In this document: positions 40,932 through 46,082 of the stretch, in pieces | How the letters are laid out: each line of letters begins with the position of its first letter | Position numbering within the stretch: the first letter of the stretch is position 1 | Sequence record: OR992645.1 | DNA length: 64,000 bases | Direction: 5' to 3' (one strand) | Source: Escherichia phage EI-SP-GF | Position numbers and translations under genes: made by a program | Notes under the pieces: model-generated | Told to the model about the DNA's origin: nothing | Database searches by the model: none | The model's input: only the letters and a program-made list of their open reading frames with translations

Positions 40932-42308
40932 ATGCCATATTTAGATAAAGTGGTAGATGTTACAGTTAACCTCGGAACCCAACCTATTGACACTGTAGGT
41001 TTCGAAACTCCCCTGTTCATCGCTATCCACAACAACTTTACTGAGCGAGCTCGCGTATATGCGGAGCTGGATCAGATGGTGGAAGATGGTTTCGCACAAG
41101 GCTCTGCAGCGTATGAGTTTGCAGCAAAAGCTTTTGGTGGTGTATTCCCTCCACAATATGTTATGATCGGCAGACAGGCCAAAGAAAAAACCACTGTAGA
41201 TTTTAAAGGTATTGCTGCCGCAGCTGATACTGATGTCGTAATGACTATTGCAAAAGGTGGCTACAATACCTCTCTGATAGTGCCTATCTCTGGTGGAACA
41301 GGTGCAACTCAGATTGCAGAGTCAATGAAGACTAAAATCGAAGCAGATGATAATTTGGACGGTATCACTGTAGAGGCTGAAGAAGGTGTTATCACCATCA
41401 CTGGTGACTGCACTGTTGGTTATCATACTGGTAACTATACAATCAAAAATATCGCCAATTCTGAAAAACCTTCTACAATAGTTGATAAGATCAATGCTGA
41501 GCGGGACAATTGGTACTTCCTGTGCCATGAAGACCACACCGACATTGAAGCATGTGCTAAGTGGGCTCAGGCCAACTACAAGCTGCACGTCTACTCTACT
41601 GCAGAAGATGTGACTGGCAAAGACAGTAACATCGCTACCAAACTGAAAGCTGCACAATATGACAGTGTTGGCATGTACGATCCTCGTGCAGATAAGGACT
41701 TCCCGGAGGGTGGTATCATAGGTGCTATGGCATCCAACGATCCGTCCTACGGTGACAGCTTGCACTTAAAACAGATGCCAGGTGTGATTGCACCATCTCT
41801 GACTTTAACTCAGCGTATGGCGATTTGGGAAAACCACGTTAACTTCTACAGAATGATTAACGGTGTTGGCGCTTTCTGGGAAGGTAAGTGTGCTTCAGGT
41901 CAGTATGCAGACGCTATTCGTTTTGCACACTGGATCAAGTTCAGATCTGAAGAATCCATGTTTGGGTACATGCATCGCCGCTCCAACATGGGTTTAAGCA
42001 TGAAGATGTCTGATGATGATCTTCCGGTTATCAAGTCTGTTCTGATGAACAACCCGATCAATACTGGCATTAAGAATGGCGCGATCCTGACAGGTTTTGA
42101 CGAAGACAACAATGTGTTCTACGACCCGATCATCACAGTTCCTAAACGTGCAGAGATCCCAACCAATCAGTTGGCTGCTCGTGTTCTGGAAGGTGTGAAA
42201 GTAGAACTGGTGTATAACAACGCCCTGCACTTCGTTCGTATCCGGATCAACGTCCTTCTGGACAAGGTTGGTTCTAAATCCACCAATGCTGTTGCAATGA
42301 CTGAATAA
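40932..42308 (+). CDS. putative major tail protein (tail sheath-like by size and gene order)
   Basis: 458 aa, followed by a 157-aa tube-like gene, chaperone pair and tape measure; order typical of contractile tails. Confidence 0.45.
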   Translation: MPYLDKVVDVTVNLGTQPIDTVGFETPLFIAIHNNFTERARVYAELDQMVEDGFAQGSAAYEFAAKAFGGVFPPQYVMIGRQAKEKTTVDFKGIAAAADTDVVMTIAKGGYNTSLIVPISGGTGATQIAESMKTKIEADDNLDGITVEAEEGVITITGDCTVGYHTGNYTIKNIANSEKPSTIVDKINAERDNWYFLCHEDHTDIEACAKWAQANYKLHVYSTAEDVTGKDSNIATKLKAAQYDSVGMYDPRADKDFPEGGIIGAMASNDPSYGDSLHLKQMPGVIAPSLTLTQRMAIWENHVNFYRMINGVGAFWEGKCASGQYADAIRFAHWIKFRSEESMFGYMHRRSNMGLSMKMSDDDLPVIKSVLMNNPINTGIKNGAILTGFDEDNNVFYDPIITVPKRAEIPTNQLAARVLEGVKVELVYNNALHFVRIRINVLLDKVGSKSTNAVAMTE

Positions 42309-42318
42309 GGAAGACTAG

Positions 42319-42792
42319 ATGGAAACTCAAATTTTAACTCCTTATGCTTATGACCCTAAAAAGGTCAAACTGTATCTGATGCAGCAGCGTGTCACTGGCT
42401 TCGCTGCTGACACCAAGATCGTTGTTTCAAGAAATGAAGACAACATCTACCCTCACGTTGGTGTGGATGGCGAAATGTCTGCGGCTCTGTCTCGTAACCA
42501 ATCTGGTGTTATGACTGTATCTTTGCAGAACACTTCTGTATGGAACGCCTACCTTTCCGACTGGCAGAAACAGGCATCAATTACTGGTCTGGTATTCTTC
42601 CCTGTTCTGCTGGAAGGTAGCCAGGGCCCTGGTATTGCCACAATCGGTTGGATCCAGAAACAGCCTGACCTGACTTATGGAACCGAAGTAGGTCAGCTGG
42701 ATTGGGATATCGGTATCCTGGATGCATGGCTCAACCGTGACAACATCACTGGTGCTCTCACTGGCCTCGCAGGTCTTGCAGGTATTATCTAA
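42319..42792 (+). CDS. putative tail tube protein
   Basis: 157 aa between sheath-like gene and chaperones; followed by strong terminator. Confidence 0.4.
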   Translation: METQILTPYAYDPKKVKLYLMQQRVTGFAADTKIVVSRNEDNIYPHVGVDGEMSAALSRNQSGVMTVSLQNTSVWNAYLSDWQKQASITGLVFFPVLLEGSQGPGIATIGWIQKQPDLTYGTEVGQLDWDIGILDAWLNRDNITGALTGLAGLAGII

Positions 42793-42810
42793 GAGCACAC
42801 TTCAGCATAA

Positions 42811-42841
42811 GCCTCACCTTCTGGTGGGGCTTTTTGCTTTT
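42811..42841 (+). terminator. intrinsic terminator
   Basis: 8-bp stem GCCTCACC/GGTGGGGC, loop TTCT, then TTTTTGCTTTT. Confidence 0.7.
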
Positions 42842-42882
42842 ATGGTTCTGACACACGTTCTTGAATTGCTTGAAAGGTTAAA

Positions 42883-42911
42883 TTGACAATGCACCATAAT
42901 CATGGTAAAAT
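42883..42911 (+). promoter_or_regulatory. sigma70-like promoter (TTGACA-N17-TAAAAT)
   Basis: Consensus -35 at 42883-42888, -10 at 42906-42911, TGGTAAAAT extended -10. Confidence 0.55.
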
Positions 42912-42954
42912 ACACAAATATGGTGCACAACATGACTAATAAGGATGCTATAAA

Positions 42955-43428
42955 ATGGCTATAAACTTTAGACCTACAACAGAGATTGACTTAGCAGGGC
43001 ACAACTTCGTGATCACCCACTGGGGGCCGATGAAGGCAATGAAAAATATGCCTAAGATTGGCAAGATTGTGGCTGTCCCGTTAGGTGCTATCGGTGGATC
43101 TATTATCTCAGGTGGTCAGAATATGGCTGAGGTTCTTCCTACTGCTCTGGCCTACCTGTTCCAGGAGCTTGATGACAACTCTATTGAAGAGTTGTTTAAA
43201 ATCTTGTTCGAAGATATTACTGTAGACGGTGTGGATAGGCTTAATCCAGATGTTGTGTTTGCAGGGCATCTGCTGGAGATGATTAAACTGGCAGGTAAGG
43301 TTCTGGAGGTTAACTACGGCTGTTTTTTCACACAAGACGGTTTAGGAAGCCTTCTGGAGATGTTACAGCAGATGGGTATGATTCAGCAGGTGAACAATCT
43401 GGATCAGACTCCGGAAGAGCAGGAATAA
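42955..43428 (+). CDS. tail assembly chaperone
   Basis: 157-aa acidic protein immediately upstream of tape measure gene. Confidence 0.5.
   Translation: MAINFRPTTEIDLAGHNFVITHWGPMKAMKNMPKIGKIVAVPLGAIGGSIISGGQNMAEVLPTALAYLFQELDDNSIEELFKILFEDITVDGVDRLNPDVVFAGHLLEMIKLAGKVLEVNYGCFFTQDGLGSLLEMLQQMGMIQQVNNLDQTPEEQE
43323..43329 (+). other. candidate -1 ribosomal frameshift slippery heptamer T_TTT_TTC
   Basis: X_XXY_YYZ heptamer in frame of chaperone ORF; -1 frame is open from here to stop at 43688. Confidence 0.4.
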
Positions 43429-43439
43429 GCAAAGTTGTT

Positions 43440-43688
43440 GTGAGAGCCAGTGAGTGGGCAGCTAAGAACAGCTCACTTAACTGGTTCGACTTTCTTTGGT
43501 GTAGGGTGCTCAAGAACTTTAAAGGGGAAAATTTTGAATCGCTTAATCTTGCAGATATGGCGTATTTCCTCAAGCTGTGTGAGTATCTTGATATCGAAGA
43601 ATTCCTAGATACCGTCCAAAACAGGGAAATGGAGCGGGAGCAGAAGGCTGCCGCAGCTGCTGCGAAAGCTAAGCGCAGGAGAGGATAA
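43440..43688 (+). CDS. tail assembly chaperone frameshift extension
   Basis: ORF in -1 frame relative to 42955-43428, contiguous open frame back to slippery site. Confidence 0.4.
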   Translation: MRASEWAAKNSSLNWFDFLWCRVLKNFKGENFESLNLADMAYFLKLCEYLDIEEFLDTVQNREMEREQKAAAAAAKAKRRRG

Positions 43689-43742
43689 TCTAAGGGCCGG
43701 ATTCCTTTTCTGGGATCTGGCCCTTTTTATTATGAGGAAAAC

Positions 43743-46082
43743 ATGGCTACAAATAAGATAGTTGCCACAACAGTCAACAAGATTGGCTTTGAGATAGAGA
43801 ACTCCTCCTACAAAAAAGCTGTAGAGAAAATTCGCAGTATCGGGAAGGAGTTCAGGAAACTGGGCGAGGATTTTAACTCAGCCAACCCTATGAGCAGATG
43901 GCAGGCAGTGGCTGTTAAAACTCAGCAGACAATGCAACGTGTTGCCAGACAGCAATCCCAAGCAAATGCTAAACTGCACAGGGAGAGCGTTGCTCAGGCC
44001 AAGAAAGAGGCTGCAGTAAAGGCTGCAATAGAGCGCAGGGAGAATGCAAGACGTAAGCAAGCTGTAGGCAATATTACCGCCAAAAACCCAGAGATGGCTA
44101 GGATGCGTAAGTTCTACCAGCAGCAAGCTAAAGAGGCCAAAAAAGCTGCCAAATCTGCACCAGTATCCTATGGTGGTTATAAGGCACCTAAGGCAAGAGT
44201 TCTTGCTAACGCCAAGTCTTTCAGATATATCCCAGGCAACCCTAACATGGGTGGGGTGGCTTCAGATCCTAATCTTGTGAAAGCCCAGACTGCTGCCATG
44301 AACCGTTATCACAGACAGTTAAGAAGGGACAGCAAAGCTGGGATGGATAATAGGCTTATGGCAGATCGTGAGGCAAGGAGAACCCACCTCTACAACTCTG
44401 CGATAAGACTTTCTGCCAAATATGGTGCCGGATTCCGTGGTAGTCTGTCTGGATATTCGGAGTTGGAGTCCAGATTTGCTCGCGGGGAAATGAGTAAGTC
44501 AACCTTTAACGCCCACCTGTCTGCGTTGCAGTCTGGGTTTAAAAGTGCCACCAGCCAAACTCTGACCCTCGGTGATGCTATGAGGGATTTGCGTAGATCT
44601 GTAATCAACGCTACAGCTGCGTATACCGCTTTTTCTGGATTTGCTGCAGTTAACAGATCCGGTCATATGATGGAGGGGGCAAGTGCTGCTCTTACTGCTG
44701 TTACTGGAGATCCAAACAAAGCCAACAGTGAAGTTGCGTTTGTCCAGCAGGAGGCTATGCGTCTTGGTTTTGACCTCAAGTCTGGTCTTCAGGGTTATTC
44801 TCAGATGGCGGTGAACGCCAAAAATCAGATGACAAACCAAGAGGTGCATGAGCTATTCTCTGCATACTCGCAGTATGCTGCTGCTTACGGTGCCGATGAG
44901 GTAAAATACCAGCGCGGTATTATGGCAATCCAGCAAATGCTCGGTAAAGGGCAAGTAATGTCCGAAGAACTGAAGCAACAACTTGCTGAAGCATTACCTG
45001 GTGCATACGAACCTTTTATCAAAGCTACCCAAGAGGCTTTTGGTCTTGCTGAGCTCTCCATGGATCAGTTCATGGATATGATGAAAAAAGGTGAAGTTAA
45101 AACAGCCAAGATCATGAAGTATGTGGCTAAGTACATGAATGAGGCATCTGCAGCTGGTTATGAAAGAATGCAGAAGTCTAACGTACTGGCAGAAAACAGA
45201 CTGAAAACCTTTATTGAACTGTCCCGTCAGAAACTGTTCACACGTTGGGCAGATGAGCTGACAGAGTTCTACTACACCTTAATCCGCACAGGTGAGACCC
45301 TGCAATTTGTGTGGGATGCCGCTGGTGATTTTGTTAGCGGGTTTGTGAGAGGTTTGAACTGGGTTGTTGGTGAACTAAACAACACTATAGTTAAGATCCG
45401 TTTGTTTTTCCTTGAATGGGGAATTAAATGGGGTATCATAACTGCTAAGACGAAGGAATATTCCGAAGAGATACATGACACCTTTAGCATGGCTAAATGG
45501 GCAGGGTATGCTGCTGCAATCATGCTGGTAGTGAACGCCCTTACCAAAGGGTTTGTTATGGCATCCATGCTTGTAAAAACATTTAAGTTCCTCAGCAACC
45601 TGAGAGGTGCAGCTGGAGCTGCAGGTGCTGGTGCAGTAACCGCAGACGGCTCTGGAGGAGGAGCAGCCGGAAAAGGTGGTGGAGGCATTAAGACGCCTGG
45701 CGGTAAAGTTGGCATTCTTGGCAAACTAGGTATCATTGGCACAATACTGAGTGCCGGAGAACTATTTAATGACCGTTTCAACCCGCTGAGTGAAAGAAAT
45801 CAACAGCTGGATACCATCAGCGATATGATTCGTAAAGACATCATATCTGGAGGTAACGGGTTTGTTGATCCTCTAAGCACCTTGCCGGGAGGTACTCTTC
45901 CGTTACCAGGTGGTCCTGGTTTTGCTTCTCAATTAAGAACCATGGAAATGCTACCTTTAGAGATCAGTGATGGTAAAATCACGATTTCAATAGATGAGGG
46001 TGAGTTTAGCAAAATATTTGATGCAAAACTTGAGTGGGAGAACAGTAAAGATATCAACTTTATGTCCACAGACCTTTGGTAA
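43743..46082 (+). CDS. tail tape measure protein
   Basis: 779 aa, Ala/Gln/Lys-rich helical sequence with Gly-rich segment, downstream of chaperones. Confidence 0.8.
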   Translation: MATNKIVATTVNKIGFEIENSSYKKAVEKIRSIGKEFRKLGEDFNSANPMSRWQAVAVKTQQTMQRVARQQSQANAKLHRESVAQAKKEAAVKAAIERRENARRKQAVGNITAKNPEMARMRKFYQQQAKEAKKAAKSAPVSYGGYKAPKARVLANAKSFRYIPGNPNMGGVASDPNLVKAQTAAMNRYHRQLRRDSKAGMDNRLMADREARRTHLYNSAIRLSAKYGAGFRGSLSGYSELESRFARGEMSKSTFNAHLSALQSGFKSATSQTLTLGDAMRDLRRSVINATAAYTAFSGFAAVNRSGHMMEGASAALTAVTGDPNKANSEVAFVQQEAMRLGFDLKSGLQGYSQMAVNAKNQMTNQEVHELFSAYSQYAAAYGADEVKYQRGIMAIQQMLGKGQVMSEELKQQLAEALPGAYEPFIKATQEAFGLAELSMDQFMDMMKKGEVKTAKIMKYVAKYMNEASAAGYERMQKSNVLAENRLKTFIELSRQKLFTRWADELTEFYYTLIRTGETLQFVWDAAGDFVSGFVRGLNWVVGELNNTIVKIRLFFLEWGIKWGIITAKTKEYSEEIHDTFSMAKWAGYAAAIMLVVNALTKGFVMASMLVKTFKFLSNLRGAAGAAGAGAVTADGSGGGAAGKGGGGIKTPGGKVGILGKLGIIGTILSAGELFNDRFNPLSERNQQLDTISDMIRKDIISGGNGFVDPLSTLPGGTLPLPGGPGFASQLRTMEMLPLEISDGKITISIDEGEFSKIFDAKLEWENSKDINFMSTDLW

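Follow-up and report, generated by a model that had tools for sequence, protein, structure and literature searches.

Upstream of its tape measure gene, Escherichia phage EI-SP-GF (OR992645.1) carries 2 overlapping open reading frames (ORFs), and the question raised by this locus (positions 42955-43742 of the 64,000-nt stretch of DNA analyzed here, hereafter the window) is whether they encode 2 separate proteins or are joined by recoding into a longer form of the first. An earlier note on this DNA had proposed a −1 programmed frameshift of the kind conserved in tail assembly chaperone genes. Our analysis argues for that reading: given the gene position, a conserved heptamer, an open −1 frame, a downstream domain without a conserved start, and the lack of any fused homologue among those retrieved, T_TTT_TTC is very probably the site of a programmed −1 ribosomal frameshift of the lambda G/GT type. 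Production of a fusion protein is inferred, and so are the slip, how often it happens, and the partners that the products bind.

Bases 42319-46082 are 92-98% identical to those of at least 116 Vequintavirus genomes, which by sequence identifies the phage as an rV5-like E. coli myophage (genus Vequintavirus). The order of genes along the window is sheath, tube, chaperone, −1 ORF, and tape measure, and it is the same in all relatives (Table 1). Because a promoter, the function of which we infer from its consensus match only, and terminator-like hairpins bracket both ORFs, these consensus-matched signals suggest that the chaperone ORF and the −1 ORF are transcribed together as a single unit, with the tape measure gene expressed by read-through; the second hairpin ends 17 nt before the tape measure ATG (43743). 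Such read-through would fit a high ratio of the chaperone to the tape measure protein, its expected client.

Table 1. Features of the tail gene locus in the window of phage EI-SP-GF.
Feature	Coordinates	Strand	Remarks
Tail sheath gene	40932-42308		
Tail tube gene	42319-42792		Pfam KPP10_Orf10
Terminator-like hairpin and T-run, intrinsic type, 3' of tube gene	42809-42832	+	Also annotated in phage EdH4
Sigma-70-like promoter (putative), TTGACA-17-TAAAAT with TG extension, 5' of chaperone gene	42883-42911	+	11/12 consensus
Zero-frame chaperone gene, short form (TAC-N), 157 aa	42955-43428	+	Pfam and phrog matches
Shine-Dalgarno-like GGAGG, candidate 5' stimulator	43305-43309	+	13 nt 5' of heptamer
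Last −1-frame stop (TAA) before slip site	43311-43313	+	5' limit for the shift
Slippery heptamer T_TTT_TTC	43323-43329	+	P-site TTT F124, A-site TTC F125
−1-frame linker of predicted long form, HTRRFRKPSGDVTADGYDSAGEQSGSDSGRAG	43329-43424	+	Overlaps zero-frame tail
C-terminal domain of predicted long form, −1 frame	43425-43688	+	phrog_10409, E 9.5e-51, function unknown
Terminator-like hairpin, intrinsic type, 3' of −1 ORF	43692-43725	+	Also annotated in phage EdH4
Tape measure gene, 779 aa	43743-46082	+	Pfam PF20155 (TMP_3), E 2.6e-18; phrog_5255, E 0

The upstream ORF had been taken for a tail assembly chaperone gene, and profile searches bear this out: its 157-aa product matches Pfam family PF21822 (Phage_TAC_15; E 3.1e-23, 83.1 bits against a cut-off of 22, residues 15-129) and phrog_3840, tail assembly chaperone (E 1.3e-68). 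In an AlphaFold model of the short form, for which 38 sequences were aligned, confidence is good over residues 1-123 and drops to pLDDT values under 50 for residues 124-157, so that the heptamer lies at the end of the folded domain, close to where the Pfam domain ends (residue 129). Searches of PDB sequences with the chaperone and with the −1 product returned nothing useful, and the lone meaningful PDB match of the chaperone model in Foldseek was 5ir0 (probability 0.98, target TM 0.61, E 0.15; phmmer E 0.86). The latter is ORF19 of a Vibrio cholerae PICI-like element (PLE), a protein of unknown function, and a phage satellite may encode a protein resembling tail assembly chaperones.

Within the window, the zero-frame codons TGT (43321-43323), TTT (43324-43326), and TTC (43327-43329) encode C123, F124, and F125, which gives TTTTTTC the X_XXY_YYZ phasing that had been read into it. 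The −1 frame (positions equal to 0 modulo 3), also described previously as open through the downstream ORF, indeed runs uninterrupted from 43314, just after its last stop, to the next stop at 43686-43688 and includes ORF 43440-43688; the +1 frame is closed, being open only at 43394-43453. Translation in the zero frame continues for 32 sense codons after F125 to the TAA at 43426-43428, and its overlap with the open −1 frame amounts to 38 codons. At the rate of in-frame X_XXY_YYZ motifs in the long ORFs of the window (0.0028 per codon), the chance of finding at least one in such an overlap is about 10%, or about 4% for A/T-type motifs, and when the zero-frame tail of the window is shuffled synonymously, 13% of the shuffles leave the −1 frame open. 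On its own, the heptamer of the window is thus weak evidence; what places the site beyond chance is its conservation across relatives.

To cover this conservation, loci were gathered by whole-protein tblastn against GenBank phages, by a pattern scan of IMG/VR, and by exact look-ups of homologues retrieved in a whole-protein search, yielding 39 distinct motif-carrying contexts from GenBank, IMG/VR, and metagenome contigs. They represent Vequintavirus, Seunavirus, Henunavirus, Avunavirus, Certrevirus, Stephanstirmvirinae (phAPEC8-like and phi92-like phages), Plateaulakevirus (Aeromonas phages), one Ounavirinae phage, and uncultured clades. The exact in-frame T_TTT_TTC is present in all 39 of these, down to about 25% chaperone identity, and these counts are to be read with the sampling in mind: the IMG/VR loci were fetched with an FF-containing peptide pattern, by which amino-acid conservation is partly ascertained and codon choice is not, and four of the loci came from the whole-protein search that preceded the exact look-ups, without selection on the FF motif. 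The codon preceding the Phe pair ends in T in 39/39 contexts (TGT in 24, CCT in 11, AGT in 3, and TCT in 1), the wobble T being kept despite replacement among Cys, Pro, and Ser, where the background frequency of T at wobble positions is 33%. The pair itself is always TTT followed by TTC, with a TTT:TTC ratio of 154:109 elsewhere in these genes, and the adjacent Tyr and Gly codons show synonymous variation.

In 2 relatives the motif has been replaced, not lost, as judged from their sequences: in Rheinheimera phage Barba19A, T_TTT_TTC gives way to the lambda-type G_GGA_AAG, located three codons further downstream, and Vibrio phage qdvp001 has A_AAT_TTT at the position of the slip site. Pseudomonas phage Kremar and Acinetobacter phage Ab15, which are more distant, keep GTTTTT at the equivalent N-Y-x-x-V-F position. 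In all loci, the −1 frame contains no stop between the motif and the end of the downstream domain, and, barring those with an inserted gene or a long spacer, 6-91 nt separate the end of the −1 ORF from the tape measure gene. For a given zero-frame protein, the chance of an open −1 frame is 0.007-0.72 per lineage, with a product of about 6e-10 over 12 lineages, a rough figure, as the lineages are not fully independent. Early closure of the +1 frame in every lineage (in the relatives within about 20 to 50 codons), always short of the downstream domain, rules out shifting by +1 or −2.

The position of the shift can be bounded from both sides. Upstream of the T-run, −1-frame stops occur at a distance of 3 codons in the window and 1 codon in Aeromonas phages, and directly adjacent to the run in Ab15. 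Downstream, a −1-frame motif, [R/K]-x-F-[R/Q]-[R/K]-P, lies 3-5 codons from the site and is at least 90% conserved; it is found even in Kremar and Ab15, whose zero-frame tails are short and different. The upstream stops and the downstream motif together confine the shift to the few codons that contain the heptamer.

Beyond the overlap, codon-position entropies in the −1 frame near a KNSSL-W-D motif are 0.54/0.48/1.26, a pattern indicating that the downstream domain is coding and that its −1 frame is under purifying selection. The alternative that survives best, although we consider it improbable, is that no recoding takes place and that ORF 43440-43688 (82 aa), the part of the −1 domain listed in databases as a "hypothetical protein," is a separate gene with a GTG start of its own, used perhaps through termination-reinitiation; the heptamer and the openness of the −1 frame would then be incidental. 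A GTG is indeed present at 43440, 12 nt past the zero-frame stop, most GenBank records give a separate hypothetical protein, and the 10% chance expectation noted above would accommodate one in-frame heptamer in 38 codons. However, this GTG lacks a proper Shine-Dalgarno sequence (AGGA lies 15 nt upstream), annotated starts vary between records, and across the relatives we found neither a conserved start codon nor a conserved Shine-Dalgarno sequence for the downstream domain. In Erwinia, Klebsiella, Cronobacter, and Rheinheimera phages (loci L005, L006, L009, and L012), the first ATG, GTG, or TTG falls inside the conserved domain, so that starting there would delete its most conserved part; by this evidence, the domain cannot be initiated independently in several lineages. 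Separate expression also leaves unexplained the invariant heptamer codons, the always-open −1 overlap, and the −1-frame motif upstream of any start. Some independent or re-initiated translation of the downstream ORF from GTG 43440 is possible in the window phage.

The reconstructed fusion has 73 homologues in the database, all of them 149-159 aa long, so that in none are the 2 parts fused into one ORF. A database search with the −1 product alone retrieved 3 proteins only, probably because gene callers miss or truncate it, and the AlphaFold model of this product alone, based on 3 homologues, is poor, with a pLDDT of 51.

Under a programmed −1 frameshift, most ribosomes would read 42955-43428 and produce the 157-aa TAC-N, and a minority, with tRNA-Phe on TTT in the P site and on TTC in the A site, would slip back by one base, both tRNAs re-pairing with TTT TTT, and would continue in the −1 frame from CAC 43329 to 43688. 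The predicted junction is ...NYGCFFHTR..., where −1 read-through gives ...VLEVNYGCFFHTR and the zero frame gives ...GCFFTQDGLGSLLEMLQQMGMIQQVNNLDQTPEEQE. The resulting long form, TAC-NC, would have 244 aa and consist of the folded chaperone (residues 1-125), a flexible Gly/Ser-rich linker, and a helical C-terminal domain of about 85 aa. By analogy with gpG and gpGT of lambda, many copies of the short form would coat the tape measure protein and the rare long form would recruit tail tube subunits through its extra domain; neither form would be expected to remain in the virion.

A downstream stimulatory structure, which the earlier note had suggested looking for, did not emerge: fold z-scores were −0.14 and +0.31, and no conserved stem-loop or pseudoknot of the kind that accompanies IS3-, IS911-, and dnaX-type sites (5-9 nt downstream of the heptamer) was found by single-sequence folding, RNAalifold (0 pairs across 12 relatives), or comparison with Rfam (no match). 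An 11-bp long-range pairing of 43347-43357 with 43409-43420 in the minimum-energy fold was rejected, being no better than in shuffled sequences and not conserved. Given that no stimulatory structure was found, frameshift efficiency may be low, but the G/GT shift of lambda is low-level as well. A candidate 5' stimulator is the Shine-Dalgarno-like GGAGG; GGAG or GAGG is kept in many lineages and absent in Certrevirus and Aeromonas phages, and its retention is confounded with conserved Leu-Glu-Val codons. In E. coli, Shine-Dalgarno-like elements located 6-17 nt upstream stimulate −1 shifting, and UUN A-site codons and all-pyrimidine heptamers are frameshift-prone (PMC4066793).

That no stimulatory RNA structure was found is one of the points that would fit transcriptional slippage, whereby RNA polymerase would add one U at the T6 run and the same C-F-F-H-T-R fusion would arise by standard translation; other such points are that the T6 run is homopolymeric and that slippage and a ribosomal shift would yield products that cannot be told apart. 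Nevertheless, we judge this explanation quite unlikely, slightly more so than separate expression, since the run comprises 6 T compared with about 9 A or T in documented bacterial cases (PMC5009743), a polymerase needs neither the strict X_XXY_YYZ phasing nor the invariant TTC, and only a ribosomal mechanism explains the non-homopolymeric G_GGA_AAG and A_AAT_TTT of the 2 relatives. Finally, that a sequencing error or a real indel in the T-run split one true ORF, as homopolymer runs are prone to error, is effectively refuted by the recurrence of the same split in hundreds of genomes and metagenome contigs that were sequenced independently, by the short length of all 73 homologues, and by the zero-frame substitution pattern that persists past the site (0.87/0.56/1.04).

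Programmed ribosomal frameshifting at this site would make the overlap a segment read in 2 frames. Within it, the zero frame keeps its entropy pattern, with the values just given compared with 0.62/0.24/1.20 upstream, and in the alignment the long form has R129 and F130 conserved to at least 90%, followed by a stretch of variable length, rich in Gly, Ser, Asp, and Pro and with many indels; the RFR motif of the linker is at 43338-43346, and RFRKP, the form that the conserved motif takes in the window, begins at 43338. The same bases thus specify a conserved, flexible tail in the zero frame and a variable Gly/Ser-rich linker in the −1 frame, which tolerates the overlap because only a linker is needed. 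The site had further been described as lying unusually far, about 33 codons, from the zero-frame stop. This holds for the window (32 sense codons), but the distance is a conserved family trait: the interval from heptamer to stop is shortest in Kremar (8 codons), followed by Ounavirinae and Ab15 (14-16), Stephanstirmvirinae (20-22), Aeromonas phages (about 29), and Vequintavirinae (30-36), and is longest in qdvp001 (37).

It is conceivable, if on balance doubtful, that the frameshift swaps one C-terminal module for another at the domain boundary and that the overlap is a long conserved dual-coding segment. On that reading, the short form would have a conserved tail of 22-36 residues that is absent from the long form, and the same approximately 100 bases would encode, in the −1 frame, a linker opening with the deeply conserved R-F-R-K-P. 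If so, the tail could, for example, serve self-assembly on the tape measure protein, and R-F-R-K-P could recruit the tube or act as a stimulator, in the form of nascent peptide or mRNA, replacing the missing RNA structure; were tail and motif both functional, the segment would be an ancient dual-coding element common to Vequintavirinae, Stephanstirmvirinae, Ounavirinae, and their relatives. As a separate observation, CCTTCTGGAGA (window 43350-43360) is identical in Barba19A (L012, about 1533-1543), although the chaperones are only about 30% identical, and conservation there extends to both frames (frame 0, SLLE; frame −1, PSGD); CCTTCTGGAGA could reflect dual-coding constraint or an unrecognized RNA or Shine-Dalgarno-like element downstream of the slip site.

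The G/GT frameshift of lambda and its conservation in long-tailed phages are textbook knowledge (PMC5009743). The lambda system, described by Levin (1993) and by Xu, Hendrix, and Duda (2004) and summarized in the same source, would share with our locus an overlapping ORF pair between the tube and tape measure genes, low-level −1 shifting at a heptamer (with a product ratio of 30:1 in lambda), a long form consisting of the short form plus a C-terminal domain, and the finding of no essential RNA structure. Unlike lambda, in which the heptamer is G_GGA_AAG and lies a few codons before the stop, the window has T_TTT_TTC 33 codons before the stop, so that its short form has a C-terminal tail of its own; furthermore, the window phage is a contractile-tailed myophage, and its chaperone (PF21822) has no detectable similarity to lambda G or T. 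The gpE/gpE+E' pair of phage P2 resembles the window locus in that a contractile-tailed phage uses a −1 shift on a T-rich heptamer, T_TTT_TTG, between the tube and tape measure genes, whereas the P2 protein belongs to a different Pfam family from the window chaperone. Frameshift efficiency is higher in P2 than in lambda, according to work cited in PMC5009743. In E. coli dnaX (tau/gamma), the likeness lies in a possible upstream Shine-Dalgarno-like stimulator, corresponding to GGAGG in the window, and in products that differ in their C-terminal modules; in contrast, dnaX has a strong downstream hairpin where none was found in the window, its shift truncates the protein where that of the window extends it, and the Shine-Dalgarno-like element of the window is not present in all lineages.

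The closest precedents are homologous loci. A translational frameshift was noted in 2015 in FelixO1-like phage Moogle (PMC4319497), and, in December 2025, a paper mentioning Vequintavirinae as structural relatives put forward a conserved −1 site, marked by an invariant GTTTTT, for Vandenendeviridae and for 231 genomes of Andersonviridae (PMC12846349). The FelixO1-like and Pakpunavirus loci share with the window a tube protein of the KPP10_Orf10 family and a −1 ORF that runs to the tape measure gene, the published GTTTTT is included in the window sequence TGTTTTTTC, and the Ounavirinae phage SarahDanielle has an identical T_TTT_TTC at the equivalent N-[FY]-x-x-F-F position. They differ in their zero-frame tails, which comprise 8-16 codons compared with 32-36 here, and Kremar and Ab15 have only G_GTT_TTT or GTTTTT, without a full X_XXY_YYZ heptamer.

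The arrangement is thus an ordinary one for long-tailed phages, and what is new is its extension to Vequintavirinae and Stephanstirmvirinae: we found no paper or sampled GenBank record applying a frameshift to these subfamilies, the Adele paper naming Vequintavirinae only as a relative, and the paper on the rV5 genome and proteome makes no mention of the locus or its proteins. Among the matches listed (60 of 228 records), the downstream region is called hypothetical, "Phage protein," or nothing, and none of the GenBank records examined joins the 2 ORFs; start points differ widely, or the gene is omitted. Such inconsistent gene calls are a symptom of an unannotated frameshift. In RefSeq, ORF49 of phage JES2013 (L001, 2502-2870) starts inside the overlap, at the equivalent of window position 43320 (CTG here), just before the heptamer, and in other records the downstream ORF starts at GTG or is absent.

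The result concerns more than 200 public genomes (rV5-like, PVP-SE1-like, and phi92/phAPEC8-like phages and related therapeutic candidates) in which the downstream ORF is hypothetical or omitted; it should be annotated as a frameshift-extended tail assembly chaperone, joined at T_TTT_TTC. It also ties these subfamilies to the frameshift already proposed for the FelixO1-like and Pakpunavirus groups, showing that a single slip site, located where the chaperone domain ends, has been kept over very divergent myophages, and it would provide a natural example of U_UUU_UUC apparently working without a downstream RNA structure.

Some further observations concern the surroundings of the locus and the labeling of related records. 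Mobile-looking insertions occur around the locus in relatives: Barba19A carries an HNH endonuclease gene between the −1 ORF and the tape measure gene (L012, 1820-2458, minus strand), and a human-gut clade with 72-74% identity to the window has a DUF723 protein of 512-621 aa encoded directly 5' of the chaperone gene (L053 and L054, 1-1144). About 18-23 unannotated GenBank records labeled "Campylobacter phage" (MG0656xx; e.g., C12, C14, and A116) contain DNA about 92% identical to the rV5-like tail module of the window, with chaperone proteins up to 100% identical to that of the window; these records probably represent mislabeled hosts or contaminating coliphages.
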